Virus record (IMG/VR): IMGVR_UViG_2645727901_000008
DNA: 64,000 nt
Source of the DNA: a virus
Lineage: Duplodnaviria; Heunggongvirae; Uroviricota; Caudoviricetes
Strand: one strand, 5' to 3'
The number at the start of each line of letters is the position of its first letter. Position 1 is the stretch's first letter. A program made the position numbers and the translations under genes. The notes under the pieces are model-generated. The model did no database searches and was not told the DNA's origin. It was given only the letters and a program-made list of their open reading frames with translations. Below, piece by piece: positions 10,950 through 51,764 of this stretch.

Positions 10950-11567
10950 TCATTTTTGTCGGATCTTTTCCAGCATATTTAATTCATTATCACTTTCTGC
11001 TGCTGAGACGGTTGGCCTCACATTTCCGAAATATTTCCTGTGAGACTCATGACTTATGTATTCACCGACAGTTTCATTCTTGAATATACGAATTTGACAT
11101 ATGCGAGATCCAACAATAAGTTCTACAGGGCTATTCCCATGATTAAATAACTCTAAAGATATACAGCCTCTGTACCCTGGTTGTATCATGGTATTTAATG
11201 AAAGACCAAGCCTTGTATAGCTGCTTCTGGACAATACATCAGCGTAGCAATCTGGTGGCAAACAAACATATTCTAATGTTGTTGCCAGTACCACTTGATT
11301 CGGGTAAACAATGAATCTATCCCCAAGATCTCTCCTTGTTTCCTGGAAAAATGTTCTGATTGGTTGATGAGTATCATTGTTTTTTGATGGAATTAACTCT
11401 ATTGACGGCTTCCTTGTCATAATAGACACTAAAAAATCGTAACCAAGTCTAAGGTCTATGGTGAAGTTCCCAATTTGGTTTTTATTTAGAAGAGGTTCAA
11501 TGAACAACGACTCAGGTTCTTCTGATTCATAATATTGCAGCAATTCAGCTTTGCTTAGGAGATTCAT
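10950..11567 (-). CDS. dCTP deaminase (Dcd/dUTPase-fold) family protein with catalytic residues conserved
   Basis: Alignable by eye to E. coli Dcd: IDLRLGYDF ~ [44 protein letters not shown] ~ [49 protein letters not shown] ~ GWSGCIVLEFYNSG (RSS and the catalytic Glu are retained). GGAGTG RBS supports the MNLLSK start at 11567, which overlaps the upstream stop (ATGA). Confidence 0.65.
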   Translation of the reverse strand: [205 protein letters not shown]

Positions 11568-12637
11568 TGTGCACTCCATTTTTCAAGAATCATTACGTTT
11601 CGAATCGATTTTTCAACCAAATCATTTATAGTTTTTTCTATGGCTTCTTGTGACAACCCAGACCATATACCCGTAGGTTTTTCCCATTCAGAGCATAAGT
11701 ACTGCCAGCTGCTGTTAATAAAAGCATGCATTTCATTGTGGTCGCGAATAACAAAAGGACGCACATTATCAAAAGCTGATTTCACATCAAGCAAAGGTGT
11801 CGGCAATGTCAAACAAGGAGAAATAATCTGCCCACCATTATGTAAGGCTGATATCACAGCATTGAACATGCCAACAACTGGATTTTCCACTTTGTTCAAA
11901 AAGTCGCTTACAATTTTAACTCTATCTTCTGTGGATGGGTGAGTATAGCTTGCAGGATGAGAGCCAGCTAATTTGTATAAGAAATCTACCCCACTTTTTC
12001 CAATAAATTGGGCACTAAATAGATCTGCAAAATATTCTCTGCAATGATTTATCCAAATAACATCAGGTAGATTACTCCATTCTGGTCCAGGAAGTGTGCC
12101 TTTGTCCTTGGAACGATAGTTAAGACAGGCAAGCTCAGAAATACCTTTGCTAATATCAACGAAATGTCCCAATTCGTGATATAAAGGTATAGAGCATAAT
12201 GGTCGTCTTCTGTACATTTCAGGTAATGAAATCTGAATTAATTCGACATCGAATTTGACATTTAAAACTTCGTCAAATAAAGAATACAAATTCTTGTTTA
12301 CAGACTTAAAATAAAACCCATGCATATCTGGAGATAGGGCTGTGGTTATAAGTGTTTTTTCACTTATCCATTTTTTACAGGCATCATTTAAGCAATAGAC
12401 AATCTCGTAGGGAATTTTCTTTGTAGTACTGCCAGTGAAAAAATTAACTGCATCGGTGATAAAAAAAGTACAATCCGCAATTATTTTATCAGCAACATTC
12501 ACATGGTTTTCATAGAGCTTATCCACCGCTTCTTGTAGAACAGCAAGATATTCATGCATGTCTTTAGAAAAATAGGGAGATTCTGATATCTCCCTTAGCT
12601 TATTTCGAACTAATGTAAGTTGTGTAAATGCAAGCAT
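11564..12637 (-). CDS. ImmA/IrrE-family (M78) zinc metallopeptidase-like protein with extra N- and C-terminal regions
   Basis: HExxH (LYHELGHFVD) followed about 27 aa later by HCREYFADLFSAQF, resembling the E..AN.FA..LL third-ligand motif of ImmA/IrrE. AT-rich. Coupled to both neighbours (TAATG and ATGA overlaps). Confidence 0.55.
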   Translation of the reverse strand: MLAFTQLTLVRNKLREISESPYFSKDMHEYLAVLQEAVDKLYENHVNVADKIIADCTFFITDAVNFFTGSTTKKIPYEIVYCLNDACKKWISEKTLITTALSPDMHGFYFKSVNKNLYSLFDEVLNVKFDVELIQISLPEMYRRRPLCSIPLYHELGHFVDISKGISELACLNYRSKDKGTLPGPEWSNLPDVIWINHCREYFADLFSAQFIGKSGVDFLYKLAGSHPASYTHPSTEDRVKIVSDFLNKVENPVVGMFNAVISALHNGGQIISPCLTLPTPLLDVKSAFDNVRPFVIRDHNEMHAFINSSWQYLCSEWEKPTGIWSGLSQEAIEKTINDLVEKSIRNVMILEKWSAQ

Positions 12638-12942
12638 TAAATGTACTCTAATACATTCCGGGCCATTACGGGTTCTAACATATCTTCGCTAGTTACTTTG
12701 GTTAGCACCTGGGCGAGCGCCTTAGTGTGGCGTATCTCTACCGCGAGCGAGATGGACTCTCTGTGAGAAGGAATCTGTAATTGATCACCTTTATCTACAC
12801 TTAAGTTTGAGGCTTCTCTGATCACCTCATAAACCCGTAACTTTAACTGCTGTGACACTTCTTGTTGAGATGCTATAAGCTGAAGTACAGTCTTGATCAA
12901 CTTCAAAGAATCAGAAGCTTGCTGAGGAACCGCATAGAGCAT
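12637..12942 (-). CDS. small alpha-helical protein (101 aa), first gene of the peptidase-deaminase operon
   Basis: Strong AAAGGAGGGG RBS before ATG 12942. Stop overlaps the next start. Confidence 0.5.
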   Translation of the reverse strand: MLYAVPQQASDSLKLIKTVLQLIASQQEVSQQLKLRVYEVIREASNLSVDKGDQLQIPSHRESISLAVEIRHTKALAQVLTKVTSEDMLEPVMARNVLEYI

Positions 12943-13079
12943 AACCCCTCCTTTCCCTTATCTATAACCGCTTTCTTTTTTCTGTGTATGTTAAAAGTAG
13001 AAGCGGTTTTTACCTTTTGTAATATATATAGTGTCTAAAACTAACTTTGGCACTATATATGGCATGATATCTATGTTTT

Positions 13080-13121
13080 AAAGACACAAAAGCTCTGTTA
13101 AAACAGAGCTTTTGTGTCTTT
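13080..13121. other. near-perfect 20-bp inverted repeat hairpin (AAAGACACAAAAGCTCTGTT / AACAGAGCTTTTGTGTCTTT) between P1-like backbone and the accessory operon
   Basis: Read from the sequence. Confidence 0.6.
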
Positions 13122-13267
13122 AACTTGATCATTTTCTCGCTGAAGTGTATGTCAGGCTTAGCTCATAATCAAGTTGCTTCCAAGCTAAAAATGAGCTAGC
13201 TCCCTGAAACACTAAGAGCGGGGTGTTTCATTTATTAGCGTTGGGCCTGACGGTGTGTAGGTGAATT

Positions 13268-13555
13268 TTAGCTCATTACTCGATAACGACGGGGAATGGA
13301 ATTCTCCATCAGGCCACGAATTACTCCCGCCTCACGTAGTTCCTCTGTCTCCCAGTATCTGTTTGTCACCAGATCGAGGCTGGCTATGACCTTGTGCCGG
13401 TCATTCGGCATAGCTAATTTTTCTGCTATAACCATCAGTGAAAACTCTTCATCCAGTAGAATTTGATAGCAGTTTTTTGATAGTTCCACTTCCCTTATGA
13501 GACTGAAACGTCGCTGGATTGTGGCAGTAGAGTAAGTGAAATCTATTTTCTTCAT
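13268..13555 (-). CDS. hypothetical protein
   Basis: 95-aa ORF. Confidence 0.4.
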   Translation of the reverse strand: MKKIDFTYSTATIQRRFSLIREVELSKNCYQILLDEEFSLMVIAEKLAMPNDRHKVIASLDLVTNRYWETEELREAGVIRGLMENSIPRRYRVMS

Positions 13556-13584
13556 CGTGCGGAGAATCCGATTATTTAGCAGTT

Positions 13585-13607
13585 AAAGCCCCGGACAGGC
13601 CGGGGCA
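13585..13607 (-). terminator. GC hairpin GCCCCGGACAGGCCGGGGC downstream of the Rha-family gene (part of the dispersed repeat)
   Basis: Read from the sequence. A near-identical hairpin lies at 51537..51555. Confidence 0.45.
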
Positions 13608-13614
13608 ACAGTAA

Positions 13615-14541
13615 TTAACTAACAATCCAGTCCATAGCAACCATATCCTCTGGCGCTAAATCAATAGCATGGATTTTCCCATCCCGGATAGTGCGCCAGT
13701 GCTTCCTTGATCCGCCTTCGGGCCATACCCATACACCTTCAGACCATGAGGCGCGACGGCATACCGTTGCATATCCACTTCTGATCTTCTCTCTGGCGGT
13801 ATGCAGTGACAGATTATCTTTTGGGATTTCCGGTAAAGGATGATGGATTGCCTGAAACAGCCCCATCTTGGGATGATACCAGCGTTTGTTGCGTGGTTCT
13901 GCCTCCGACATAACCTGCTTGAAGGCTTTCTGGAAGGGGGCCAGGGCCACAATGGAGCGTCGCGCAAGCAAACCATCTGGAGTTAAAAACTCATGCGTAT
14001 CGGTGGGAATCCGGAAAGCGTTAACCAGGTTGCGACATTTGGCTTCGGTCAGGCCACATTTCGCCGCCAGCTGGCGGTAGCCAATGTAGCCTTCCGGAAT
14101 ATTGCCTTTCTTTATTTGCTCGAGTGTTTCAGCGACCATCGATACTTGTGCTGATACCTCGGCTACCTGGGCATTTACGGCGTTGATCCGGCGTTCATGC
14201 TCAAGATGCATTTGCGCCATTTCAGCCAGGATTTCGGCTTTTGATTTTAACTGTACCCGGGCATTCTCCAGTTCGCGCCAGCGGTCCACCAGCCGGGCGG
14301 TGAATTCGGGAGAGAGCTGCGCGACGACGACAATACTATCGCGCTTGCCTTGCTCGCCTTCGAAGACGTAATAGCTCGCCGGGCGGCCTGCGGTGGGCTT
14401 TTCCTCAATTTGAGGAAAAGATATTACGCCCCGTTCCGCCAGGTGTTCAATGGTGCGTTTAACGTTATCAGGGCGCTTACCTACCAGTTCCGCGATCTCA
14501 ATGCTGGTCATTGTCGCTTTTTGAGAGATGGACAGATTCAT
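13615..14541 (-). CDS. Rha-family phage regulatory/antirepressor protein with a C-terminal extension (copy 1, fused form)
   Basis: MTSIEIAELVGKRPDNVKRTIE... is a typical Rha (Phage_pRha) N-terminus. The C-terminal ~60 aa match the separate 66-aa ORF at 51564..51764. Confidence 0.7.
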   Translation of the reverse strand: MNLSISQKATMTSIEIAELVGKRPDNVKRTIEHLAERGVISFPQIEEKPTAGRPASYYVFEGEQGKRDSIVVVAQLSPEFTARLVDRWRELENARVQLKSKAEILAEMAQMHLEHERRINAVNAQVAEVSAQVSMVAETLEQIKKGNIPEGYIGYRQLAAKCGLTEAKCRNLVNAFRIPTDTHEFLTPDGLLARRSIVALAPFQKAFKQVMSEAEPRNKRWYHPKMGLFQAIHHPLPEIPKDNLSLHTAREKIRSGYATVCRRASWSEGVWVWPEGGSRKHWRTIRDGKIHAIDLAPEDMVAMDWIVS

Positions 14542-14756
14542 CAGTGCGCCTCCACGCAGTTCATCGGCAGATTCCAGTAATTGAGGATCTCCATCGCATC
14601 AAGAGTGAAGCGAGCAGCAAAAATGCAGGGTTCTTCGGGAAGGTATGAGCGCGCCTCTGCTTCGGTAGCAGCCATGACGCAGATATACAGGTGTTTTTGG
14701 CAGGAATAGAAACGCCAGATAAATTCAGAATGAGTTGGGGTAGGGATAGTAGCCAT
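14541..14756 (-). CDS. small protein (71 aa) coupled upstream of the Rha gene (icd-like position)
   Basis: AGGAGG RBS 9 nt from ATG 14756. ATGA overlap with the Rha gene. Paralog at 52468..52692 (shared EFIWRF..QKH, AATE.EAR motifs). Confidence 0.55.
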   Translation of the reverse strand: MATIPTPTHSEFIWRFYSCQKHLYICVMAATEAEARSYLPEEPCIFAARFTLDAMEILNYWNLPMNCVEAH

Positions 14757-14940
14757 ATTGGCAGCCTCCTTTGACTAAGTTAAGGAGCTACCGCGTGAGG
14801 TTCCAATCTCAATGGCGGTAGCACTGACTGGGTTGGAACTACCGGCGTCAAAGGGAACCGGCCTGCCTTTCGGCAGCCCAGCCAGCACTACCATTGATCT
14901 CTGAGCTAAACGCTACGTATGGCTGTGCGATGGCATGACA

Positions 14941-14965
14941 CAAAAAAAGACGCTTTCGGCGTCTG
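14941..14965 (-). terminator. rho-independent terminator (AGACGCCGAAAGCGTCT plus TTTTTTT on minus strand) upstream of the small-protein/Rha operon
   Basis: Read from the sequence. Confidence 0.5.
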
Positions 14966-15557
14966 TGTCGCCTTTGACATTATCCGGGGTTCCAATCCCG
15001 GCACCCGTTTTTCTAAGGTGCCGTAGAAATATACCCCACGATAATGCCAGGGCGCAACAGTCAGTATTTTATGCTTTGGCGGATTTCTTCCGGGCTTGCT
15101 TGCAGGCGTAGGCCATTGCTTTAGCTTTCACTTCATCCAGCTTCCCGGTGATCGCTTCTTTTCCGAGAGTGACAAACCAGTCATAGCAACCGCCAGTGAT
15201 GTTCTGGATTTGAAAGTTGAGGTAGCGAACGGTCATTTTGACACCCCCAGCGCGAGTAAAGAATGCAGATTATCGCGTGAGTGGCGGACAACGAGTGATG
15301 GGAAAAGACAGTAGCTGTTCATAGTGTAGTGACTCCTTGCTTTCGGAGCCGCCATCGACTGTTCCACGGTCTGGTGGCGGCGCAATAAAGGCTGGAACAC
15401 CGTGAGTCAACGGGGGCTTTTCAGCCACCTATATTGCACCGCCATAGGTATAGCGGCGGCAATAATACGAAAAACTAAACAGTTTGTCTCAAAAAGTTGA
15501 CCGGTGTGCCAATCGGTAGTGAATGTACATCGGAGAAATTTACAATTCAACTTAAAA

Positions 15558-15572
15558 TGTTAGAAAACTAAT
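15558..15572. promoter_or_regulatory. recurrent motif TGTTAGAAAACTAAT (rc ATTAGTTTTCTAACA) at the ref 3' end / upstream of the small-RNA-icd-like-Rha region
   Basis: Member of the motif family described in findings. Confidence 0.45.
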
Positions 15573-16146
15573 TTATCAATTCAATCGCCATCTGATACAA
15601 CGTCATTTCATCGGCATTGTGCCGCATGAAATCTGCTTTTCCGCCTATTTTTCCGTCAGCATGAACAGGGACCAGCCAGGGATATTGTTCTCGGACCTCG
15701 GCTGGCGCTGCGTACTGGTGGTGCCATTTACACAAAGGGAGGACATATTTATGCGCGTTCTCTGCCGTTCTCCCGAAGATATGGTGCAGGGATACTACTG
15801 GGCTATGTTGTCCGTGAATATGGCAGGCAATGCAGGGGAGAGTACCGATAGCGGTCTGTATCCGGCGTTCATCAGCTGTGAGTGATCTGCCCTTCAGGCC
15901 GCGTGACGTGCGTGTTTTTTTGGGCGGAGCGGATACAGCTTTATCTTTTCTCCGCTGTTCATATTGCTTTGCTTTTTCAATTTTCTTTTGCCGATATTCA
16001 GGCGATGCGGCTTTTTCTCTCGCTCGCTGCTGCTGGCGTTGAGCTTGTTGAAGGCGCTTTGCCCTTTGTTCCTCTCGCCAGGCCGGGTCAGCCAATTTTT
16101 GCATGGCTTTTTGTCTCTGTTTCTCCCAATAGCTCTGTTTCTGCAT
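15568..16146 (-). CDS. ref: Ref-like HNH endonuclease (recombination enhancement function): basic N-terminus plus HNH core
   Basis: K/R/Q-rich N-terminal ~90 aa, then CIACHIHGQHSPVVSLHHIFGRTAENAHKYVLPLCKWHH, matching the P1 Ref architecture. Confidence 0.6.
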   Translation of the reverse strand: MQKQSYWEKQRQKAMQKLADPAWREEQRAKRLQQAQRQQQRAREKAASPEYRQKKIEKAKQYEQRRKDKAVSAPPKKTRTSRGLKGRSLTADERRIQTAIGTLPCIACHIHGQHSPVVSLHHIFGRTAENAHKYVLPLCKWHHQYAAPAEVREQYPWLVPVHADGKIGGKADFMRHNADEMTLYQMAIELIN

Positions 16147-32948: not shown

Positions 32949-32970
32949 AAGCCCCGCATTGCCGGGGCTT
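32949..32970. terminator. bidirectional terminator AAGCCCCGcattgCCGGGGCTT between convergent genes
   Basis: Read from the sequence. Confidence 0.6.
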
Positions 32971-34478
32971 TATATATCCAGATCTGGCATTTCCACATCT
33001 GCAAGAACCTGATCGCGGAAGGTAGCCATTTCAGCGCCGATATCTTCATTAGCAGGAACATAGTCCACCAGCATTGTAAAGCAGTAGGTATCCCATCGGT
33101 CAGGTGATTTGATGTTCAGCTTTTGCCGCATGTGCTCCTTGCGCATCATCGCCATCTTCCCTTCTTCATTAAGTAAAAAGGGGATTTTTGACGCTTGCTC
33201 TGCCGTTTTAGGGTCACTGTCTATTCGCATACGACCTGACTTTATGGCATCACGAGCCATAATATTTGCGTAGGCACGTTGGTTAACAAAACGCTCCTTG
33301 TCTTTGTTCGAAAACATGGGTTTCCCCCACCGAATACGTACCGGATTAGCCCCACGGCGCACCAGCTGCGCACAGGTATCTGAACCAAAACCGTCTGCGT
33401 CAACCGCGATTGTAATATTCGGGTATTTATCCGGCGTGCATTCGTTGTATATAAAGTCAGCAAAAGCCAGCGGGTCCATAGTCCCTGGCATTTCCATTAT
33501 CTTAAAGTTAACAACGCGCCGCTTATTCCTGTGACCTGACACCTTGCAGATGTTAAGGACCGACTTGTCTCGCCCGTTCCCAACGTCAGCTGTCGCTACC
33601 CACCCCCAATTTTTCTCCAACAACACCTTGCGCCGCGCAGCGCGATCGCATTCATCACGACCAAGCAAATAGCCGTTAATCTCCCGAGGGAACTGACCAA
33701 GCACCTTAACCATATACTCAATAGAATCGCGCCCGCCATATTCCAGGAGTTTCTGCCTGATGAATTGTGGTGTGACGAACGGTGATTCTTCTGAGTTAAG
33801 AACAATTGCTGTCCAGATCCCTTTCGGGTTGTCTGGGGTTTTAGCTTGAGAATGGTGCGAATCGTAGAAATAACCACTTGGCCTTGTTGGCTGGGATAGC
33901 ATCAACATTCGGTTATCTTCTTCAGTAAGAGCACCGGTCATTACGCCGATCGCCTTATCAGATATACCAGATGCTTCATCCAGAATTAGAAGCAAATGTG
34001 CCGCGTGTTCCCCCGCCAGCGCTTCTTCGTTGCCGAGTCGATAACCTTTGCAGAGAACTTCCCAAATCCCCTTACGGGAGCGCTCATAAAACATGGTGTC
34101 AGAGAGGACAAAATAGGTCTGCAACCACCCATGACGCTTAACTGCATTCGCCCAATACTGTTTAACGTATTTGAATACGCCTGTTTTTACCTGGCCTATC
34201 TTGTTAGCAACAATGATGACACGGGCATCGGGGAACAGGATCATAAAAATCAACAGCAACATCGCGGTAAGGGACGACTTCCCCGTTCCGTGTCCGGACG
34301 TGACGGTAGTCCTACTCCCCGTTTCCTGCACTGACTGAATGATCTGCTGCTGCTGGTGGGAGGGGAACATCCCAAAAATATCGACAACAGCCTGGGTAAA
34401 GTTGTAGCGGTATTTGATTACCATATCGCGCCAGCGTGGATCGCTGGTGACGCATTTAATCTTGCGCCCGCCAGCCAT
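32970..34478 (-). CDS. pacB: terminase large subunit (PacB-like)
   Basis: Walker A GHGTGKSS and the ILDEASGI Walker-B-like motif. 502 aa. TAATG coupling to the upstream gene. Confidence 0.75.
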   Translation of the reverse strand: MAGGRKIKCVTSDPRWRDMVIKYRYNFTQAVVDIFGMFPSHQQQQIIQSVQETGSRTTVTSGHGTGKSSLTAMLLLIFMILFPDARVIIVANKIGQVKTGVFKYVKQYWANAVKRHGWLQTYFVLSDTMFYERSRKGIWEVLCKGYRLGNEEALAGEHAAHLLLILDEASGISDKAIGVMTGALTEEDNRMLMLSQPTRPSGYFYDSHHSQAKTPDNPKGIWTAIVLNSEESPFVTPQFIRQKLLEYGGRDSIEYMVKVLGQFPREINGYLLGRDECDRAARRKVLLEKNWGWVATADVGNGRDKSVLNICKVSGHRNKRRVVNFKIMEMPGTMDPLAFADFIYNECTPDKYPNITIAVDADGFGSDTCAQLVRRGANPVRIRWGKPMFSNKDKERFVNQRAYANIMARDAIKSGRMRIDSDPKTAEQASKIPFLLNEEGKMAMMRKEHMRQKLNIKSPDRWDTYCFTMLVDYVPANEDIGAEMATFRDQVLADVEMPDLDI

Positions 34479-35842
34479 TAATCATCCTCCGGCGGTTCTA
34501 TCGCGATATCATCATCTCCGGCGTCATACCCTGCATCAGATACATCATAATCACCGTAAATTTCAGCCGTTGCCGAAGGGTCAATATCCAGCTCTTCGTC
34601 GTTGGCCTCGAATTCTCCAGCTTTACGCTCGCCATTGCGGTCGTAATCTCCGCACCCCAATTCTTCAACAATGGTTGCCACATCCGCCCGGCGCTCTGCC
34701 AGCCATTGCGGATGGTTAGCCTGAAGCGTTGCAAACTCCCTTGCCTCTTTGTCCAGCTGTTCATCATCAACATCATTGACGTCAGAAACAGGTGGTTCGA
34801 GAAGAGTGATAGCTTTCGCCGCGCGCGCCGCGAGGATAGCCGGGACGCTGACCCCCTGGCGCTCGATGTATTCAGCAACACCGATATCATCCAGTTCCTC
34901 GCGCTCACGCATACGTATAGCGGCGGCGATAACTCTGGCTGCGCGTGCGTCAGCGCCAATGCGATATTCAATCTCTTTGCCACGCTGTTCGGCCTGTAGG
35001 CGTGCTAATTCGAGTTTTTCTCTGGCCTCAGCCTCTTTGAATGCTTGCTGGCGAGCGCTCTGACGAAGCTTTTCATCCCCCTGTCGCAGCTTTTGTTCGG
35101 ACTGATATATAGCTGCCAACCTACTGATAAAATCATTCATGTAGTAGGCCGCGTCACTGATTAGACCGAGAAGACGCTGCCCAGGGTGCATTCCTTCTGG
35201 CTCTTTATCGCCCAAGGCGTCTATTTCCGCCTGTAGGCGTTCGGCCTCCTGATCAACAATGCTTTGATACTGAAGTGCGCGCTCTTGCGCCATTTGAATT
35301 GCTAACCGCAGGTGTTCTTCTGCGCCGTTCTTCATCATATCGCGAGCCACATTCGTAGTGGGCAATGTGGCACGCTGCACAGCACCGTCAGGGATCATTG
35401 CAGAAGATCCCTCAATTTTTGGGGCGCTTTTATCTTCTTCGGGGATCATTTTCGCCATTTTTTCGCGCAATGATCTCCTGACAGATTCTTTTATCTCATT
35501 GTTATTATTTGCATTATTTTCATGATCCGAAGTTTTCTTTCTCGGCATACTTCGGAAAGAACCTGCGCCCTGCGAATTGTCAATTTCTGTAAATTTTGTT
35601 TTTTCTGCACCCTCTTCCAGCTTTTTTGTTGCTCTTCCCGCCCGTTTTTTTTCAGGTGATTTGGTGCTTTTTTTTGTTGTCTTTACCTGCGACCGCACCT
35701 CATTTTTTTTCATATTGAGATGCTTTCTGGCTGTATTGAAGCTAAGGCCATGCTCCTCACAGTATTCCTTTACAGTGATCCCTTTTTCTTCACGCAACGC
35801 TATAAAGCGGGCGCGGTGCTCCTCCCAATTAACCAGACTCAT
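34478..35842 (-). CDS. pacA: terminase small/pac-recognition subunit (PacA-like)
   Basis: Position immediately upstream of the terminase large subunit. N-terminal HTH-like region. Contains an internal GATC cluster (candidate pac). Confidence 0.55.
   Translation of the reverse strand: MSLVNWEEHRARFIALREEKGITVKEYCEEHGLSFNTARKHLNMKKNEVRSQVKTTKKSTKSPEKKRAGRATKKLEEGAEKTKFTEIDNSQGAGSFRSMPRKKTSDHENNANNNNEIKESVRRSLREKMAKMIPEEDKSAPKIEGSSAMIPDGAVQRATLPTTNVARDMMKNGAEEHLRLAIQMAQERALQYQSIVDQEAERLQAEIDALGDKEPEGMHPGQRLLGLISDAAYYMNDFISRLAAIYQSEQKLRQGDEKLRQSARQQAFKEAEAREKLELARLQAEQRGKEIEYRIGADARAARVIAAAIRMREREELDDIGVAEYIERQGVSVPAILAARAAKAITLLEPPVSDVNDVDDEQLDKEAREFATLQANHPQWLAERRADVATIVEELGCGDYDRNGERKAGEFEANDEELDIDPSATAEIYGDYDVSDAGYDAGDDDIAIEPPEDD
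35390..35530. other. candidate pac site: 5 GATC (Dam) sites within about 135 bp inside the 5' third of pacA
   Basis: GATC at 35393, 35406, 35454, 35472 and 35524. Local density is far above the background expectation. Confidence 0.4.
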
Positions 35843-37307: not shown

Positions 37308-37762
37308 AACGTCTCCTTTTTTACACGCGCGACTATCCCCCGGAAGTACCGGTAGTGATGTCGTAACTTCGTATTAATTAAGGGGTACAGCCTGAGCGGC
37401 TATATGATGAATTGAAAGGAGTTGTGGCGGTGGTGCCTCCACCTGCCAGGTTAGCCACTCCCGGCGACGTCACTTATCAGAACGTAGTGAATGAAAATGG
37501 CTTCGTCACGAGCGCATAGCCGCAATTACCACAACGGAAACGGCGCTCACGCTAATTAAACGCCTTTTCCTGTTGTGCGCCGTACTCTTCCGGCTGTCAC
37601 ACCGAATCGCCAGGATGGTGAGTCCTCGGTCCGACGATATGAACGGGGCTTGCACATTCCGGCTACCTGGTTTGTTGCCTGAGCTAGGGGAAAAGGTAAC
37701 CCCTTTAACGTCACCAGACCGCTAACGACGCATGTGCCATACGCCGTGTTACAACCAAATAT

Positions 37763-37838
37763 GGTGGCCCCTACCGGACTTGAACCGGTGACCGTGCGAT
37801 TATGAGTCGCCAGCTCTAACCACTGAGCTAAAGGGCCA
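37763..37838 (-). tRNA. tRNA with anticodon CAT, ileX-like (probable tRNA-Ile2 lysidine type, alternatively Met)
   Basis: GGCCCTTTAGCTCAGTGGTTAGAGCTGGCGACTCATAATCGCACGGTCACCGGTTCAAGTCCGGTAGGGGCCACCA. Cloverleaf with a 7-bp acceptor stem. Very similar to E. coli ileX. Confidence 0.8.
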
Positions 37839-37847
37839 ATTAGTGTT

Positions 37848-37961
37848 TTATTTTCGACGCCTGAGATTCTTCGCGACTTGTTCTACGCCGTATACGATCA
37901 CAAGTAGAAACAGCAAAAACCATCCAGGGTTCTTATCGATATACGTCCAAAAATCCATCAT
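37848..37961 (-). CDS. small membrane protein (37 aa), third gene of the TerB-like operon
   Basis: MMDFWTYIDKNPGWFLLFLLVIVYGVEQ... ATGA coupling with the upstream small gene. Confidence 0.35.
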   Translation of the reverse strand: MMDFWTYIDKNPGWFLLFLLVIVYGVEQVAKNLRRRK

Positions 37962-38122
37962 GAGTTCCTGAACGCACCTTCAATAATCGGCAATAGCAAT
38001 ACCACAGCTACTGAAACTAATGCCCCATCAGCCAACACCGACATCACTTTGCTGGTGAAATCCACCAGTACGGACAAAACGAGAAAGCCAATGGCGCCCG
38101 CAATACGCGCCTTGCCAATCAT
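37959..38122 (-). CDS. small membrane protein (54 aa) coupled to the TerB-like gene
   Basis: MIGKARIAGAIGFLVLSVLVDF... TAATG overlap with the TerB-like stop. Confidence 0.4.
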
Positions 38123-38556
38123 TACAGATAATCTTCCACACGAAGGCCAAGACGGCGACCAACCTCTTCCAGAACCTTATGCTCCGCAGGTTCGATTTCA
38201 CCATCTGCTTCAGCGATCGTGAGCATGTTCACGAAGACTTCTTCCGCTTCTTTGGGATCGTTTTTGATATCTTCAATTTCGCGGAGGATATTCATGCGAC
38301 CAACACGGAAACCAGCTTCCAGTTGCTCAGTAAAACGGGTGATTGTTGCGGTAATTTCGTTGCCAAAATGACTTAAGCGAGGATTAGAGCGGACAAGCTG
38401 ATCAAGTTTCGCTGTTTCTTCCTTTTCGATTTCACCATCTGCGGCAGACACCAGCAAACAGCCACCGATGATGGCCTCCATCAGATCGCGATTCTCAACC
38501 CTTTTCAGCTCTACTTTTGCTGAAGCGACTTTCTTACCGAAAAATTTACCGAACAT
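38122..38556 (-). CDS. TerB-like tellurite-resistance-family protein (TciA-like)
   Basis: Two TerB-type repeats (AADGEIEKEE... and EADGEIEPAEHKVLEEV). GAGGGA RBS supports the MFGKFFGKK start at 38556. Confidence 0.65.
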   Translation of the reverse strand: MFGKFFGKKVASAKVELKRVENRDLMEAIIGGCLLVSAADGEIEKEETAKLDQLVRSNPRLSHFGNEITATITRFTEQLEAGFRVGRMNILREIEDIKNDPKEAEEVFVNMLTIAEADGEIEPAEHKVLEEVGRRLGLRVEDYL

Positions 38557-38823
38557 TGGTTTTCCCTCAATAAACATGACGTATTTATTAGGTTGCGGTG
38601 CCTGGTGCCTCCAGGTGACGTTAACCAGTTAACAATTAACGCCGGGATTTTTGTCTTCACAATTAAGGAGGATTGTTTTAACTGTTCCGCGTGCGCTTAG
38701 CCGCATTCACCGCAATGGTAAGAGCACTTGGCTGGCTGGGCGGCGATGACGCCTGTACGCATTTGGTGAACCGGTTCTGCTTCCGGCATTCGCTTAATTA
38801 GCCAAATACTCTTAACGTTGCAC

Positions 38824-38910
38824 TGGCGGAGAGTAATGGAATCGAACCATCATCGCTTGCGCAATGGGACGGTTTTCAAGACCGCTTGAGCACCATGCTC
38901 CCTACTCTCC
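38824..38910 (-). tRNA. tRNA-Ser (anticodon TGA), type II with long variable arm
   Basis: GGAGAGT...CGGTCTTGAAAACCG anticodon arm. Variable-arm stem CATTGC/GCGATG with GCAA loop. T-arm ATGGTTCGATTCCAT. 3' CCA encoded. 87 nt. Confidence 0.65.
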
Positions 38911-39282
38911 CGTTATTGTGGCGACCGGTGCTGATCTCCGGCTTGCGGTTATTTCAGACTCTCACGGGCGTTTAATTGCCCCGCCGAACAGCTCTTTTCC
39001 GCAATAGCTGCAATGTCTTTCGCGCATCAGCCTGCGCATTCACCACAATGTTGAGAACACTGGTTGTCACGCTGCAACGCAACATTTATTCGTAGATTGG
39101 GATATGACCCCGTTACGCCAGTGTTCTCAACGTTGTAGTGCCGGTTACGGTTCCGGCCAGGCCTCTTCCTCAACGGGTTGTTCTCCATACGGACTACCGT
39201 TTATTGGTCGTTCCTGCGGTTTATGTTGTGAAGCCAGATGCTTATCTTCTGGTTGCTTCAAAGAGCTGCACTTCATCACAAC

Positions 39283-39360
39283 GGTAAGGGTACTTCGTAG
39301 GGATTCGAACCCTCTGCCAAGCACGGCGATCTCCGACGTCGCAAAATACCCTTACCTGTT
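39283..39360 (-). other. tRNA-like fragment (T-arm-like GGGTTCGAATCCC flanked by a 10-bp inverted repeat GGTAAGGGTA/TACCCTTACC); not foldable as a canonical tRNA
   Basis: Manual cloverleaf attempts fail: there are 6 extra nt between the T stem and the acceptor. Confidence 0.3.
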
Positions 39361-39364
39361 GCGT

Positions 39365-39440
39365 TGGTGCCGATTAACGGGATCGAACCGCTGACCATTC
39401 GCTTACAAAGCGACTGCTCTACCAACTGAGCTAAACCGGC
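39365..39440 (-). tRNA. tRNA-Thr (anticodon TGT)
   Basis: GCCGGTTTAGCTCAGTTGGTAGAGCAGTCGCTTTGTAAGCGAATGGTCAGCGGTTCGATCCCGTTAATCGGCACCA. Confidence 0.8.
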
Positions 39441-39444
39441 AATT

Positions 39445-39531
39445 TGGTGGGGAGTGATGGAGTCGAACCACCCGAGTCGCAATGACAGTAGATTTACAGT
39501 CTACCCCGCTACCCCTACGGACTAACTCCCC
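39445..39531 (-). tRNA. tRNA-Tyr (anticodon GTA), type II
   Basis: Anticodon arm GTAGACTGTAAATCTAC. Long variable arm. Acceptor GGGGAGT/ACTCCCC. CCA encoded. Confidence 0.75.
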
Positions 39532-39536
39532 TAAAG

Positions 39537-39613
39537 TGGCGATGGTGGGTGGATTCGAACCACCGACCGACAGCTTAGAAGGCTGCTGCTCTATCCTACT
39601 GAGCTACACCATC
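39537..39613 (-). tRNA. tRNA-Arg (anticodon TCT, reads the rare AGA codon)
   Basis: GATGGTGTAGCTCAGTAGGATAGAGCAGCAGCCTTCTAAGCTGTCGGTCGGTGGTTCGAATCCACCCACCATCGCCA. Confidence 0.8.
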
Positions 39614-42688: not shown

Positions 42689-43132
42689 TTAATCAAGACA
42701 AACATATTCCGTGATAGCTTTTATGGCTTCATCGGCACTGCGCGCCTCAAAGCAGTAATAGCCTGCTTCCGTGAGGCGAGTCATCCAGACGAGCTGTTCG
42801 GGAGTCAGACGGTTTCTCCCGTGCTTCATCTCAATGCGCATTCCGTGATACCCACCACGAGCAAGGTCAATAGAAAGGTCCGGATAGCCCTTCTTCTGAC
42901 CTTCTGCCACCATCTTAATGGCTGTCCTTTTGCCTCTCAGGCCGCCGTTCGGTGTTGAGTGTGTGTGCTCATACACGTATCGCATGTTGCGATACAGCCA
43001 ATCCAGAACGCGAACCTGTTCGTAATGTTCGTAATTCCGTTTTAATAAGTCAGGATTTCTTTCTAACTCTCTCAGTGCAGCAGCGTGCGGGGATATTTCA
43101 GAATACGCACTATGATGCCTGCGTCTTCGCAT
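42689..43132 (-). CDS. VRR-NUC domain nuclease (PD-(D/E)xK superfamily)
   Basis: C-terminal region GYPDLSIDLARGGYHGMRIEMKHG...EQLVWMTRL is the VRR-NUC signature. Confidence 0.55.
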   Translation of the reverse strand: MRRRRHHSAYSEISPHAAALRELERNPDLLKRNYEHYEQVRVLDWLYRNMRYVYEHTHSTPNGGLRGKRTAIKMVAEGQKKGYPDLSIDLARGGYHGMRIEMKHGRNRLTPEQLVWMTRLTEAGYYCFEARSADEAIKAITEYVCLD

Positions 43133-43147
43133 CAAATTTCTAACACA
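43133..43147. promoter_or_regulatory. motif TCAAATTTCTAACAC abutting the VRR-NUC gene start
   Basis: Motif family member. Confidence 0.4.
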
Positions 43148-44054: not shown

Positions 44055-47000
44055 TTAGGCCGCATCGGCGATTATTTTACGCAATTCATCTACCGAGTAA
44101 CGCGTAGATACCATCCATGCAGGACGGTCAAAGTTCACATCAGCAACCGGGTTTGCTTCAAAATTCCAGAAACGCCCGCCAATCTTCTTAATCGCGTCTT
44201 TGGCGTTCCGTATTGTCGAGGAACCAGGTTGGTCGGCAATGAGATAAACCGCACCGACGTCCTCGCTGACACTCCACCAGCGCCCGCGAACACGCGCCTT
44301 AGCGCGAATCGGCTTATCATTAACCACAATGATATAGTCATCATTCGCCGCTTCATCAGCTCTGGCTTCAGCCACTGCCGCCTGCTCTTCTCTTTTGCTT
44401 TCAGCCTGTTCAAGCCTTTCCGCGATCTCTGATTCGGTGGCCCCGCCGTTTTTCAGCGATACATAGTCTTGCCACGTTGCTGATTTGAGCGCATCCGGCA
44501 ACTCATTCACATAGTCACCGTCTTTCAACTCACGGGCGCGGCGGGTAGCCATTTCTACCAGGCGATTAACAGAAACAGCATCAGCAAAATCGTCCTTACT
44601 AATGTGTTTTTCATCAAATGCATTGATGACAGCCCCCACCTTAATCCACTGCGCTGCTGGCGAATCCAGAGGATTATCGGCCTGAACAATGGCTAATTTC
44701 GCTCCATCGACACCATTATTAGCCAGCTGCTCCAATGCCGACCAGCCATCGGCATCGCTGAGTGATTTATATTGCTCAAACAATGCATCGCGCCAGGCCA
44801 CCAGCGCAGCTCGTGTTTTCTCAATTTTCGCCGTAATTTTCGCGGCCTTCACCTGATTAAACATCCGTTCAATGTCATCAGTGTTGCTAAAGGCTTTCAT
44901 CCTGCCCTGGAATAAACGGTATGCCACCACGGTCTTCCAGAAAGATTCCAGCCCTTCTCCGGACGGTTTACGGAACAGGCTAAGAATATCTTCAGAAGTA
45001 ACTTTATTAAGTGAGCGACCGGACAAACCACGCCCTGCCATCCAGTTTTCAAACTCCTGGGAAACATCATCCATCGTGGCCTGTGACCCCCATGCCTGCA
45101 TTCCCTGGATGTAATCATATCCATACAATGCCTGGAGGAATCCCTCGCCGTCCACGACATTCAGCGGGTTATCACTGGCTTGTATTTTTGCCACTTCACG
45201 CTTCAGCGCCTCATCGTTGCCATCAGGGTAAATCCACCGCTCAGGCGCTATATCCGATGCTCGCCCGATTTTTTGACCTATTACGCCATCATAAGCCGAT
45301 GACAGTGCAATCTGACCATCATCGGTGCGATAAGCCCAGTATTTAATAGCTGAACCACCGCCCCATACTCTACTAGGCTTCCCGGCAGTGACATTCATTA
45401 CCCCATTGCGAATAGCATCATAGAACTGATCGCGCGTAAGTGTTGTTGATAGCTGGTGGCATTGAACACCACGTGCAGCTGTTTCACGCGATTCTGCAAC
45501 TCCCTCTTCAAAGGTTACCGATTCAATTATCAGGTTAAAGGGCAAAAATAATGCCGTCCCCGGAGAACGAGAGTAACGACTAGCCACATCCAGCCAGGAT
45601 ATGCGGCACGTACACCCGCCCCTTTCCGCATCAATGGCGGTAACACGAACAATTGCTGTCGTATTGTGATTCTCATCGATGATCGCGCGATAATGGCTGC
45701 CCTTGTGCAACAAGATATTTTTCTCAGTGCGTACATACTCCTGTGGGTTCTGCAATACATCGGCATCAAGCTCCAGAACCCCGGCTTTAATCGCACGTTC
45801 CAGATCACCACGAGAACGTTTCATAACGGTGTCAGCGTCTTTAGCTCTGGTGATCGCAAAGCGTAGCTCCCGCACACGTTTTCTGTAGTCTCGCAACTGT
45901 TCCAGAACATATTTCTGCCCGTTCCTGTTCGTCCCCGCTTTAATCAGGTCGTCAAGATTGCGCTGGTAATGCTCTACCTGCTCCATCGCGCTTTTCAGTT
46001 CTGTCTCCATCATGCCGATATCTTTCCCGGCAGCATTCGCCGCTTTCAGGTAGTTATCGAGAGCATTATTGGCTTCGCGTAGGGCTTTCAGTTTCAGACG
46101 TTCTTCACGCTCTTGCGCCTGACGACTCATGATTGCACGGCGTTCTTCCGGATTTGCCGCCAGCATAATGGCGCGTTCATCTGCGTCATCCGCATCACCA
46201 TTGGCGATCTCTGACATGTCGGAGGTCATCACCATATTGATCCAGTCCTTCTTACGTTTCAGCGTATCCAGACGGAAGTCATCAAATGTGCCTTTGCCAC
46301 AATAGTAGTGAACATTGACCTTTTCTTGTGGTGAGCCTACCCGAGCGCCGCGCCCATTACGTTGGTCGATACTGGCAGGAGTCCAGGGTAGTGTCAGATG
46401 GTGGATATCGGTTGTCCCGATGTGCAAGTTAATACCTACTTCAGCCTTCTTGTTACAGATTATGATGCGCGTGCGACCTTCGTTATAGTCGGCGGCAATA
46501 CCTTCCATGCCCTCAAGGCCAGCATCATTTTTAGCTGAGAGATAATCCTCATATTGGGCAAGTTTGCTGTAGTAGGTTTCCCATGCACCTTCTTTGTATT
46601 CACCGTTTTTATTTGGCGTAGGTTCAGTCGGCTTATTCACCTTCTTCAGCTTGACGCCGCCAGCCTGGCTAACTGTCGTCGCATTGATAATGCCTATCTC
46701 CTGCTCCGGCATTTGCAGTGCACTGGCAATAATACGGCGCAGCTTCTGGTGCTGGGCTTTTTCATCAATGAAGACGATTTGTTTACCGTTCTTCAGACCT
46801 TCACGAAGGTTTTCGATCAGCGCGGCATACTTCGGCGGGATGGGGTGTGATACCTGCTGCATATCAATACCGGCAGCCGCAATGGCCTTCAGTATTTCAG
46901 CTTCCAGTTCAATGCCAGCACGTATTTCAACATGCGACGGATGTTCGCTAAAGGTGGTCTTCACTACCTTGCTGGCACGCGTACTGACCAGCCCACCAGC

Positions 47001-50000
47001 GCCATCTTCTTCGGCCTCGTCTACATCATCTGCCACTTTACCGCCAGCTACTTTTGGCAGGGCATCAGCAATAGCTTTTACCTTGTCTGCAAGCTCAACG
47101 GGGAACTGGAATGTAATCGCACTGGCATACAGATCAGGATCTATAGCAACCTTATCCATGTCGCGGATGATGGAGAAGATGAAATCATCCGGTTTTTCGT
47201 TTGTGATATGCCCGTTTTCATCGACCGTCAGCGCATCTTTACTACTTAACTCCTGTGCACGCTTACGAAGTTCTTCGTAAATGGCCTCTTGCTCTCCTGT
47301 CATCGGGATCTGCAAGGTATTCTCGACAATATCAGGGATTTTTACCGTCGCCCCGACGTCCGCAGCAGTCTTCAGAGTAGTCCAGCGATGGAAAATACCA
47401 CGCAGACCATCCAGGTTCTGGAAGCCCACCAGTCCCTGCTTCTCTTCCACCTCACCGGAAATTTTCTGAACCTGAACTGTGGCTGTTTTACCGAACACGC
47501 GAACGAAATCATCCGGCGTAACAATACCCATGCGCATCCACTCTTCCTGCGGAATGACAGTAGACAGCATGTTGAAAGCATCAATCGGGCTGTTCACCAG
47601 CGGTGTTGCCGTCAGCATAACCACACCACGCCCGTTGTTGCGTTTCATCATGTACGCAGCTTTTACAGCCATGTCGCGGGCCATTTTGGATACTGCCGGG
47701 TTAGGCAAATATGCCAGTTGCCCCGCTTCGCGCCCGGCGCTAAAGGAGTTGCGGTAGTTATGCCCTTCGTCGGCAATTACGCTATCGAAGTTCATATCCT
47801 CAAAGTACGGGATATTCTGCTTCTTCGTTGTACCGGTATTTGCGGCCTGGTCCTTAATCTTGTTCTTCTTCTGCGCGTCACGGTGTTTGCCAGATGCCAG
47901 GTCAAGACGCCCCATTTCCACAGCATTAAAGACCGCTTGCTGTGAGTTTTCCTCAATGGTTTCTTCTCGTAGCGGGATAGACGCGAATTGCTCTTTTGTC
48001 ATGATGACCGTTCGCCAATTTGACGACGGGATCATGTTCATGCGCTGAACGATAACGGCGCTGGCGGACTCTTTCACAACATTTCTGGTAAGAGCCTGCC
48101 CGTTACTGTCGAGGCGTGGTTCGCCATTTTCATCAAGCACCGGCGCGGTCAGAATATTTCCGCTGTCATCACGAACTTCATCCAAACCGATAAACATCAT
48201 ATTGGCGAAGGCATCAGAACTGTAGAAACTCTGTGCCTCGTGATACCAGTTCTGATAAACCGCCTTCGGAACAACAATACACGTGCGTTTAGTGCGACCT
48301 GTTTCGAAGTTATACGCCTCAAGCGCAAGCGCGGTCGTGGTTTTACCCAGCCCGGTGCCAAATCCCATGATGCCGCGCCCATCTTCTGATAAGCGACGAA
48401 CTTCTTCATTCTGATAAGTCAGAGGAATGCGCTTCCCACTAATCCCCTCCAGGCCAAGCGGTGCGTCAGAATGCGTAAACGGGATGAAGCCATTAAATGC
48501 GTCGTTATAGTCGCGGGCTATCTGATCAGCCTGCGGGTGAGTGCGTAACCAGTCGTTGAAGCTAATTTCCAGTTGAGCAATCTTATCCAGGTACTCGTTA
48601 GCGTTCTGCCCACGCGGTTTAATGCCGTTCAGGTAGTTTTCTAACTGGTTCAGGAAGCCGTCTTTATTGTTGGCCTTCTTGAACTCATTCCCGTTTTTGC
48701 CGTTTACGGTTCGTAGTTGATAGCCAGTAAATACCCCGTCCTTACCTTCGTAATCGTCCGGAGATACCAGAATGCCGTCCTCAACCTTAAGGTCGGGTTC
48801 TGTATACTTAAACTCGTCATAGCCCTGCTCTGCCAGGAACTCTTTTATCAAGCGGCGATCCAGCCAGCGGGCGTTCAGATTAACGGTGACTTTATTTAGT
48901 GGCGTGAAAATGCGTTTCTCTTCGATTTTCGCCAACTGACGCTCAAAGTTCGCTTTCTGCTCACCTGTTGACGCATCACGCCAGCCCACCAGCAATGCTG
49001 TTTTGGTTGCAATATCGCCGCTGGTGGCGCGGTCCATCGGCAGCAGGCAGCCATACCCATCAATAGCGATATCATCAAATTTCGCCAGGTATTCCAGAGC
49101 AGCATCGTCGTCTCCTGGCAGTTCGCCAGCAAACGCCTCACGAAAATCGTCCAGTGTGATTGGATTAAGTGCCACGTCACTGAAAAGGTGGGTTACAACT
49201 TGTTCCGGGCGTGTAAAGTCAATACCGGCAGCACCATCCGTTACATCAAGTCGTCCAGCAAGGAGGTCAGAAGCAGAGCCGTCCTGTTTCACGTTGCCAG
49301 TGAAAGTCATCCAGTTTTTAGCGCCAGCTTCAGCAATCCCATTCAGCTTAATCGCGTGCGGCGGACCATACTTCGCAATTTCGGCTTCCGCCAGGCGCGC
49401 GGCATCAGCAAGTACATCATCAACATTTTCCCCCAGATTACGCTTATCAAGCGCCTTGTTGATCAACTGCCCTATCAGTGCGCCGCGCATAACGCGTTCT
49501 CTGTCTTTTTCTCTCTGCTTGCCAGCAAAGCGAATCATTGCCGCTACTTCATCACTGATAACCGATGGATAGTCGGACGCGATCGCCGATATCTGGTCCC
49601 ATGACAACGCCAGAATGCCATTTGTTGACTGAAACGCGATCTGCAGATCACCAAACGTCGTAACACCATATCGATTTACATCAAGCGCGGAGGATTTGGT
49701 TGTCGCGTCCTTGACCCATTTCAGACCATCAAACTCATGCCAGATGCCGCCTACAAGGCGTTTATCGCCCACTTTCGCGCCCTGCCATGCCTGAGTAGTT
49801 ACGCCAAGCAAATCCCAATTAATGCGGCTTTCAAAGCGGCGCGATAGAGCGGTTTTCATCGACTCATTGGATACACGACCGTCCTTTTTCACCACCAGGG
49901 TATTGCGGAAGCTGGTACGCTCCATATCGCCGTAAACAAATCGCTTCCCTTCGGTTGTAAACCATTTTCCTTTGAGGAAGGTATCCCAAAGGACGTTTGC

Positions 50001-51531: not shown

Positions 51532-51556
51532 AAAAAGCCCCGGCCAGGCCGGGGCA
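51531..51556 (-). terminator. rho-independent terminator (GCCCCGGCCAGGCCGGGGC plus TTTTTT on minus strand) after the split Rha module
   Basis: Read from the sequence. Paralogous to the hairpin at 13587..13605. Confidence 0.6.
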
Positions 51557-51563
51557 TCACGCT

Positions 51564-51764
51564 TCAATTCACGATCCAATCATTACCGACTATATCAGCC
51601 GTCGATAAATCAACTTCCCGGATCTGGAGTCCATTAATACAAAACCATCCGGTAGTAGAGTAATTATCAGGCCAGGCCCATACACCAACACTCCATGCTT
51701 TACGGCGGCACACTTCAGCCTGTCCTTCCCTGATTTTTTTTACCGCCTGCATGATGTCCATCAC
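51564..51764 (-). CDS. small protein equivalent to the C-terminal extension of the fused Rha protein (copy 2, split form)
   Basis: EVCRRKAWSVGVWAWP...DIVGNDWIVN matches the C-terminus of the 13615..14541 product. Own strong RBS GGGGAGGTGA. Confidence 0.55.
   Translation of the reverse strand: MMDIMQAVKKIREGQAEVCRRKAWSVGVWAWPDNYSTTGWFCINGLQIREVDLSTADIVGNDWIVN

Follow-up and report, generated by a model that had tools for sequence, protein, structure and literature searches.

The immI operon of phage P1 is the classic antisense-RNA immunity control, and c4 is established as the source of the immunity difference between P1 and P7. In both phages the C4 RNA is processed from the leader of the operon, the decoy sites a1 and b1 lie upstream of it, and the target sites a2 and b2 follow with b2 over the ribosome-binding site of icd, the first cistron, which is coupled to the next gene. 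In the isrK-orf45-anrP locus of the Salmonella prophage Gifsy-1, the terminated short RNA IsrK acts in trans on the read-through mRNA and opens a small open reading frame (ORF) coupled to the antirepressor (PMC4825925). Tad2 proteins are tetrameric sponges for the signals of the Thoeris, CBASS and Pycsar defences (bioRxiv 10.1101/2023.05.01.538930; PMC12393519). Also, a second c4/icd region has already been described in the literature on D6-like plasmids (pYU39_89, PMC6799933). We analysed a stretch of 64,000 nucleotides (nt) from the IMG/VR record IMGVR_UViG_2645727901_000008, called here the window, whose source is a D6-like plasmid-prophage of the P1 type with ~95% nucleotide identity to Escherichia phage D6. 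It holds two copies of an immI-type module, which on balance we think are probably two independently switched operons, each delivering a Rha/Roi-type regulator together with a Tad2-like sponge, with the nearly identical DNA blocks in the two copies coming from gene conversion. Not new are the D6 gene calls and the duplication of the c4/icd region; apparently new are the Tad2-like identity of the part that is fused in copy 1 and separate in copy 2, its recurrent placement behind C4, C4 codes that are hybrid and do not match one another, and the conversion tracts.

Anatomy of the two operons against P1 immI and Gifsy-1

An earlier note, made from the letters of the window, had placed two diverged copies of a terminator, small-protein and Rha-antirepressor module about 37 kb apart, and had described the last part as fused to the Rha gene in copy 1 and as a separate gene in copy 2. 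Both the positions and the fused and split forms were found as described, with a similarity far above chance: the Rha cores are 67% identical over 237 amino acids (aa) (E 1e-109), the fused protein and the copy 2 ORF of 66 aa have 45% identity over the C-terminal 65 aa of the former (E 5e-19), and the two Icd-like proteins are also 45% identical (E 2e-15). The gene layout stood only in part. The features were present but their order had been given for the plus strand, whereas all genes of both modules lie on the minus strand and the true order is reversed, and the regulatory RNAs had not been listed. Also, each module reaches ~300 bp farther upstream than the limits first given, to ~15057 and ~52968 (Table 1).

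The resemblance to the c4-icd-ant operon of P1 immI, already suggested in that note, proved stronger than supposed. In each copy the ORFs are intact, the C4 RNA exceeds the Rfam threshold and the a1/b1 and a2/b2 sites are matched and stand in the P1 order, and the Icd homologues of copies 1 and 2 are 63% (E 5e-28) and 61% (E 8e-27) identical to P1 Icd. The leader and icd of copy 2 have ~91% DNA identity to both P1 and P7. In both copies an Icd homologue is the first cistron and is coupled to the next gene: in copy 1 the icd stop overlaps the start of the 308-aa gene by 1 nt (TGATG), and in copy 2 all three ORFs are joined by TGATG, so that the ATG of the 66-aa ORF overlaps the Rha stop codon. 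The Shine-Dalgarno sequence of the latter ORF (GGAGG, 51772..51768) lies within the stretch GGGGAGGTGA (51774..51765) that had been pointed out earlier. The window differs from P1 and P7 in having two operons in one genome, whose recognition sequences do not match, in a cargo of Rha/Roi plus Tad2-like parts as opposed to the ANT/KilAC-domain proteins Ant1/Ant2, in the pairing of a P7 a-site with a P1 b-site in copy 2, and in having repL upstream of the operon and not downstream. A repL-like lytic replication gene is present directly upstream of the copy 2 promoter, as opposed to the kilA-repL genes downstream of ant in P1; therefore the immI/repL neighbourhood is rearranged relative to P1. A CHAP-domain peptidoglycan hydrolase gene on the plus strand converges on copy 2, and the strong terminator of copy 2 lies between them.

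Copy 1 can also be compared with Gifsy-1. Its leader fits the isrK model and has an intrinsic terminator at its end, and in the predicted fold a1 lies within a hairpin loop and b1 partly so. Only in copy 1 does an isrK-model match stand together with a Rho-independent terminator, and such a leader should give a short RNA and, by a predicted read-through, the longer mRNA. As in Gifsy-1, translation of a predicted antirepressor is coupled to that of a small first ORF, and the processed RNA STnc1160 downstream of IsrK would correspond to C4 here. The differences are that the first ORF is a 71-aa Icd homologue in place of orf45, that the downstream protein carries the Tad2-like domain, and that the element is a plasmid-prophage as opposed to an integrated lambdoid prophage (PMC4825925). 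It may be noted that the candidate promoter of copy 1 was read from the sequence and placed from the isrK match at 15021, ends 7 nt before the start of that match, and was not called by a strict consensus scan. Likewise, the GC-rich hairpin past the stop of the fused gene, a weak terminator, was not called by the terminator scan.

The regulator is of the Rha/Roi type in both operons. With Pfam Phage_pRha (PF09669, cut-off 29.9 bits) copy 2 scores 36.8 bits and copy 1 29.6 bits, just under, and the 308-aa protein of copy 1 matches phrog_63 'anti-repressor Ant' at E 2e-62. In this protein the Rha/Roi-type N-terminal DNA-binding region and core take residues 1 to ~232, and the Tad2-like domain residues 244-308 (nt 13812..13618). 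The 235-aa protein of copy 2 has 68-72% full-length identity to the 'DNA-binding protein' (Roi/Rha type) of Stx1 and Klebsiella phages, which stop where it stops and are without the Tad2-like domain; in other Stx and lambdoid phages the matches are partial and bear the label Roi or anti-repressor. The Phage_pRha domain is common to the copy 2 protein and to the known Roi (HK97/HK022, Stx phages) and Rha (P22/phi80) proteins, but none of those among the matches listed bears a Tad2-like extension. Roi/Rha genes of lambdoid phages lie in the early region, where they are not known to follow a C4 leader or icd. For the window's Rha proteins a homology to P1 Ant was considered and rejected, as BLASTP against P1 Ant1 gave E 0.3 and they are without the ANT/KilAC domain (PF03374) that is present in P1 Ant1 and also in the second 'ant' of phage RCS47. 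An antirepressor activity is suggested by their position and by database labels (phrog_63).

Both modules are also present in D6 (NC_050154) at matching genomic positions and in the same arrangement: module 1 as orf83 (icd-like) and the fused orf82 (313 aa, annotated 'anti-repressor'), and module 2 as orf19 (icd-like), orf18 (235 aa) and orf17 (65 aa, annotated hypothetical). A difference lies in the N-terminal part of the fused protein, which has ~58% DNA identity to its D6 orthologue and is partly nearer to the copy 2 type. Of the plasmid records, 87 contain the copy 1 region over at least 80% of its length, and relatives of the 66-aa ORF are found on 122 plasmids, most of them at two places. 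An assembly error, which the earlier note gave as the circumstance that would undo its proposal, is excluded, since both modules recur in D6 and in more than 100 complete plasmids.

Table 1. Coordinates of the two operons, of the shared blocks and of neighbouring features (window positions except for the last two rows)
Feature	Position	Strand	Details
Copy 1 operon	13588..15057	-	
Candidate promoter	15028..15057	-	TTGCGC, 18-nt spacer, TATATT
IsrK-type leader	14943..15021	-	Rfam RF01394 isrK, 62.7 bits (gathering 50)
Decoy a1	14995..14989	-	TTGGAAC; complementary to C4 loop
Decoy b1	14978..14971	-	GTCAAAGG; complementary to C4 loop
Leader intrinsic terminator	14964..14948	-	hairpin then T7 (U run); from terminator scan
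C4 antisense RNA	14811..14898	-	Rfam RF01695, 77.1 bits (gathering 45), full length; loops from fold and pairing: b' CCTTTGAC (nt 45-52), a' GTTCCAA (nt 60-66)
a2 target	14806..14800	-	exact complement of C4 loop
b2 target	14775..14768	-	exact complement of C4 loop; overlaps icd Shine-Dalgarno
Icd homologue, 71 aa	14541..14756	-	phrog_1426; NCBIfam NF033153, 49.5 bits (cut-off 25)
Fused gene, 308 aa	13615..14541	-	Rha/Roi core, 11-residue linker, Tad2-like domain
Hairpin past fused gene stop	13588..13607	-	GC-rich; weak terminator, short T run; read from the sequence
Copy 2 operon	51537..52968	-	
Promoter	52940..52968	-	TTGATC, 17-nt spacer, TATATT; aligns with P1 promoter P51b
Leader with decoys	52888..52946	-	Rfam RF03163 c4-a1b1 (52946..52894), 51.5 bits (gathering 46.7)
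Decoy a1	52908..52902	-	TTAGCAG
Decoy b1	52894..52888	-	GTTAGTG
C4 antisense RNA	52740..52825	-	Rfam RF01695, 70 bits (gathering 45), full length; loops b' TCACTAAC (P1 type), a' CTGCTAA (P7 type)
a2 target	52739..52733	-	complement of C4 loop
b2 target	52710..52703	-	over icd ribosome-binding site (Shine-Dalgarno)
Icd homologue, 74 aa	52468..52692	-	NF033153, 40 bits; TGATG overlap with next gene
Rha/Roi-type protein, 235 aa	51761..52468	-	Phage_pRha; without Tad2-like domain
Stand-alone Tad2-like ORF	51564..51764	-	65 aa (ATG 51761) or 66 aa (GTG 51764); phrog_7385
Intrinsic terminator, strong	51537..51555	-	8 GC pairs then T6; from terminator scan
Block A	14370..14266 vs 52282..52178	-	102/105 identical
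Block B	14115..13978 vs 52048..51911	-	128/138 identical
Region differing from D6	11564..13330		
357-aa ORF	11564..12637		HExxH motif (YHELGHF)
101-aa ORF	12637..12942		overlaps 357-aa ORF
Ref-like nuclease gene	15568..16146	-	PF16786, 119.6 bits
Terminase	32970..35842		
tRNA genes	37762..39613	-	tRNA-Ser at 38824..38910
Third possible Tad2-like ORF, 66 aa	42474..42674	-	phrog_7206
VRR-NUC ORF	42689..43135		
darB-like gene	44055..50894		
CHAP-domain hydrolase gene	51046..51531	+	
repL-like gene	53107..54069	-	
C4 operon, L008	3752..4291		c4-a1b1, C4 RNA, stand-alone Tad2-like gene alone
C4 operon, L009	3746..4207		c4-a1b1, C4 RNA, stand-alone Tad2-like gene alone

The Tad2-like domain and its arrangements

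The C-terminal domain of the fused protein and the stand-alone ORF of copy 2 look like a divergent Tad2-like (DUF2829) fold, an identity that had escaped the earlier note. On PF11195 (Thoeris anti-defense 2-like, DUF2829; cut-off 25 bits) the 66-aa ORF scores 14.9 bits (E 0.04, profile positions 1-72 of 73) and the copy 1 domain 9.9 bits, aligned over its full length, both under the cut-off. An exhaustive HMMER profile search of 1.84 billion representative proteins gave 7 matches in all; therefore the sequence family is very narrow. Three of these 7 are outside D6-like elements, and on PF11195 the homologue P0127 scores 37.4 bits and P0124 23.9 bits, so that the Pfam link of the window domain to Tad2 is an indirect one through these homologues. 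A profile search of PDB sequences placed Tad2/AcrIIA7 at the top with E 0.05-0.5, insignificant alone. Word-indexed homology searches returned 3 matches for the 66-aa ORF and 1 for P0127 and no family alignment was gained from them, tblastn of the 66-aa ORF against phage genomes matched D6 only, and a profile search of genome contigs gave two weak, uninformative loci (L005, L006). PADLOC gave zero matches for the domain, for the fused protein and for the unknown ORFs nearby.

The structural comparison points the same way. The AlphaFold monomer model of the 66-aa ORF from a six-sequence alignment has a predicted local distance difference test (pLDDT) score of 90.5, and in a Foldseek search of the PDB all of the top 12 matches are Tad2 structures (Myroides odoratus, SPO1) with probability 1.00 and template modelling (TM) scores of 0.73-0.77, the next match having a probability of 0.51. 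In BFVD the top matches, with TM up to 0.80, belong to the Tad2-like/DUF2829 family. To control for a bias that P0127 might bring in, AlphaFold was run from three D6-type sequences alone, and with this low-confidence model (pLDDT 62.6) Tad2 was ranked first and second. The predicted order of elements (helix, four strands, short helix, strand) is the published Tad2 topology minus one helix, and two sequence hallmarks are shared with Tad2, R-R/K-x-x-W close to the N-terminus and a C-terminal D-W-I/V-V. Compared with the sponges SPO1 Tad2, MoTad2 and HgmTad2/AcrIIA7, the order of secondary structure is the same and TM is 0.73-0.80, but the window domain has 65 residues against ~75-90, is without the helix of the beta2-beta3 loop, falls below the Pfam cut-off, is placed under predicted C4 antisense control, and in copy 1 is fused to a DNA-binding regulator. 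Sequence similarity to the characterised sponges is 13-17%. Ligand binding by the domain, that is, sponge activity, would be what such a fold suggests.

A third gene of this kind may be present in the window, a 66-aa ORF without a Pfam match that lies just downstream of the VRR-NUC ORF and the darB-like gene (Table 1). In a six-frame scan of the window with the Tad2-like profile it was found at E 0.0014, hhalign gave a probability of 73% (E 3e-5) over the full length, and it shares the RR..W and ANDW..V hallmarks.

The nearest homologues outside D6-like elements, P0124 and P0125, come from contigs of 88-90 kb with only a distant relationship to D6-like plasmids. Each is a gene by itself, preceded immediately by a c4-a1b1 element and a C4 RNA; icd, ant and Rha genes are absent, and b2 covers the ribosome-binding site of the Tad2-like gene itself. 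The operons L008 and L009 adjoin ParM/StbA partition genes on distant phage-plasmid-like contigs. Behind C4 the Tad2-like domain is therefore seen in three arrangements, namely alone, as a coupled third cistron (copy 2) and as a fusion to Rha (copy 1). Since the stand-alone state is typical of the outgroups and of the Tad2 family generally, and since the Roi/Rha relatives are without the domain, copy 1 is most simply taken as a fusion, and not copy 2 as a fission. Fused homologues of 301-314 aa make up more than 100 protein clusters on contigs of ~90 kb, and the domain of the fused gene, compared between the window and D6, has a ratio of non-synonymous to synonymous change (pN/pS) of 0.18, indicating purifying selection; the fused form is stable.

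Recognition codes and exchange between the copies

The a and b target sequences were tabulated at nine C4 loci (Table 2). Upstream site, downstream site and C4 loop co-vary across the nine loci (a1=a2, b1=b2, three-way), with L008 as a partial exception that is without b1 and without a full a2 match; this covariation is good evidence of functional C4 pairing. In the two window copies the a and b sites are complementary to the C4 loops exactly, over 7-8 nt. No cross-match of 7 nt or more was found between the C4 loops of one window operon and the a/b sites of the other, and therefore the two operons should be silenced independently. Copy 2 of the window is a hybrid that joins an a-site of the P7 type to a b-site of the P1 type. 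Also, both C4 codes differ between the window and D6 despite their ~95% overall identity, and judging by the site sequences C4 specificity should differ at both loci. We found no description of this mix-and-match pattern in the accessible literature.

Table 2. Target sequences a and b at nine C4 loci
Locus	a	b
P1	TTGACAG	GTTAGTG
P7	TTAGCAG	GATTGTG
Window copy 2	TTAGCAG	GTTAGTG
D6 copy 2	TTGACAG	ACTTACG
Window copy 1	TTGGAAC	GTCAAAGG
D6 copy 1	TTGAGAC	GCAAAAGG
RCS47 (P1-like phage), second locus	TTGAGAC	GTCAAAGG
L008	TTGACAG	ACTCAAG
L009	TTGACAG	CACTCAAGA

The second locus of RCS47 (L007 2704..2914; 103.4-103.8 kb of the record) is an unannotated isrK-type leader with a C4 RNA, present upstream of the ORF6N+ANT 'ant' gene between pacB and c1. 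With this second switch, duplicated immI-type switches extend beyond D6-like elements.

The two window copies are direct repeats ~37.9 kb apart and their DNA alignment is a mosaic. The blocks of 90-97% identity that had been reported for them are real (blocks A and B, Table 1), identity outside these blocks being 40-75%, and the longest exact runs are 64, 40 and 36 bp. The two window copies (paralogues W1 and W2) were set against their orthologues in D6 (D1 and D2). In block A the differences per 105 nt are 3 for W1-W2, 6 for W1-D1, 8 for W2-D2 and 10 for D1-D2, and in the segment between the blocks the orthologues are 96-99% identical as opposed to ~50% for the paralogues. Synonymous differences were seen in 2 of the 34 identical-residue codons in block A and in about half of such codons outside the blocks, which argues that the DNA has been homogenised and that constraint on the protein is not the only cause. 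At codons 11-30, W1 has 83-88% identity with the copy 2 type against 63% with D1. The pattern of the two blocks looks like gene conversion, that is, non-reciprocal exchange between the copies, and exchange with other D6-like elements could contribute to the mosaic. A gene for a Ref-like RecA-dependent nuclease is present immediately upstream of copy 1 and might promote exchange between the repeats. The interval between the copies holds, as noted before, the terminase, the tRNA genes and the darB-like gene. ARAGORN finds five tRNAs here (Met, Ser, Thr, Tyr, Arg) and Rfam at its gathering threshold four, the tRNA-Ser being missed.

Proposed working and alternatives

Taking the anatomy, homologies, fold and pairing code given above as the observations, we infer that C4 repression in this phage would run as follows. 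Each operon would be transcribed from its own promoter. The 5′ leader would supply the a1/b1 decoys, in copy 1 as an IsrK-type short RNA with its own terminator, and the C4 loops a′ and b′ would pair with a2 and b2 on their own transcript. As b2 lies over the icd ribosome-binding site, C4 should block icd translation, and through the TGATG overlaps this block should extend to the coupled genes, each operon being silenced by its own C4 only. The most likely role of the operons would be to fire when C4 is scarce, as just after infection, or when it is titrated by a1/b1 decoy RNA, and then to provide a lysis-promoting regulator along with a sponge for the nucleotide immune signals of the Thoeris, CBASS or Pycsar type. 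In a more modest version, C4 operons are a dedicated means of early anti-defence delivery in P1/D6-type phage-plasmids, which the L008 and L009 operons fit.

Several points weigh against this account. Neither window sequence reaches the PF11195 cut-off, the Foldseek E-values are 0.005-0.03, and the alignment behind the confident model holds one bona fide Tad2-like sequence that could bias the fold. The domain is a minimal one of 65 residues without the beta2-beta3 loop helix, which forms the dimer interface in SPO1 Tad2; with this helix missing, a tetramer and a ligand pocket are putative. The Rha/Roi protein is without ANT/KilAC and is dissimilar to P1 Ant, and its lambdoid relatives are labelled DNA-binding proteins. 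The gene-conversion signal rests on small counts. Also, the P1 C1 operator Op51 (ATTGCTCTAATAAATTT) was not found in the whole window with up to 3 mismatches, and the aligned promoter position is unconserved.

It is possible, although we consider it doubtful, that the Tad2-like fold is a module for oligomerisation or partner binding, serving to multimerise Rha or to dock it on a prophage repressor, without any binding of immune nucleotides; a single complex would then be built either from the fusion or from the split form. This would suit the tight coupling of the domain, which in D6-like elements always comes last, as cistron or as domain, behind a Rha-type regulator, as well as its truncated 65-residue form without one helix and its low similarity to the characterised sponges. 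Also, Tad2 proteins are obligate tetramers and hence a ready-made oligomerisation unit. However, the closest relatives outside D6-like elements stand alone behind C4 without Rha, which argues for an independent function of the domain, the full-length relatives of the Roi/Rha type in other phages do without it, and the family members tested to date are signal sponges (PMC12393519). A bolder idea, which we regard as unlikely, is that the fused domain is a ligand sensor through which a host Thoeris, CBASS or Pycsar signal alters the Rha regulator in favour of lytic growth. The prophage would then read a host immune alarm, raised for example by superinfection, as its cue to exit, and the split copy would be a free sponge.

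That the copies matter mainly as direct repeats driving deletion or circle formation of the 37.9 kb between them, as the earlier note had proposed, seems to us quite improbable. A rough minimum for RecA-dependent recombination in E. coli is ~25 bp, and the exact runs exceed that; a Ref-like RecA-dependent nuclease gene is at hand, and sequence has been exchanged between the copies in the past. But among the matches listed, 60 out of 122, the plasmids are of 74-216 kb, most of them of ~87-96 kb and most with both copies, and none is near the ~53 kb expected of a deletion derivative; the pattern fits gene conversion instead. A crossover would also drop the terminase, the tRNAs and darB and leave a defective phage. 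The inversion-like rearrangement that the note had also mentioned is impossible between direct repeats. The truncated D6-like variant p75 was considered as a deletion between the two copies and rejected, as the 15-kb tail and baseplate region that it has lost is elsewhere (PMC6799933). The remaining explanation, that one copy is a redundant, decaying duplicate or that the duplication is an assembly artefact, has nothing beyond the bare fact of duplication to recommend it and is hardly credible. Comparative data refute it: the ORFs, C4 RNAs and a/b sites are intact in both copies, both are kept in D6 and in most of the 122 complete plasmids, and the domain is under purifying selection. Also, the copies are ~50% identical over much of their length, which a collapsed or duplicated contig does not explain.

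Compared with P1 immI, three things are new in this locus. The RNA switch occurs as a duplicate pair in a single genome, and the recognition codes of the pair do not match; these codes have been shuffled between close relatives (the window and D6 differ at both switches); and the switch has been re-used for different cargo including a Tad2-like domain. The table of a/b codes would be a simple predictor of heteroimmunity groups among D6-like plasmids. Should the domain work as a sponge, anti-defence would be wired into the lysis-lysogeny anti-immunity circuit of phage-plasmids that are widespread in E. coli and Salmonella, and the natural pair of fused and split forms would lend itself to testing what fusion to a regulator does.

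Finally, beyond the 3′ end of copy 1 the similarity to D6 ends at ~13332, and orf80 and simB of D6 are replaced in the window by the 357-aa ORF and the 101-aa ORF overlapping it (Table 1). The 357-aa ORF has no Pfam match and PADLOC gave none for either ORF; the region may be a variable accessory or defence slot.

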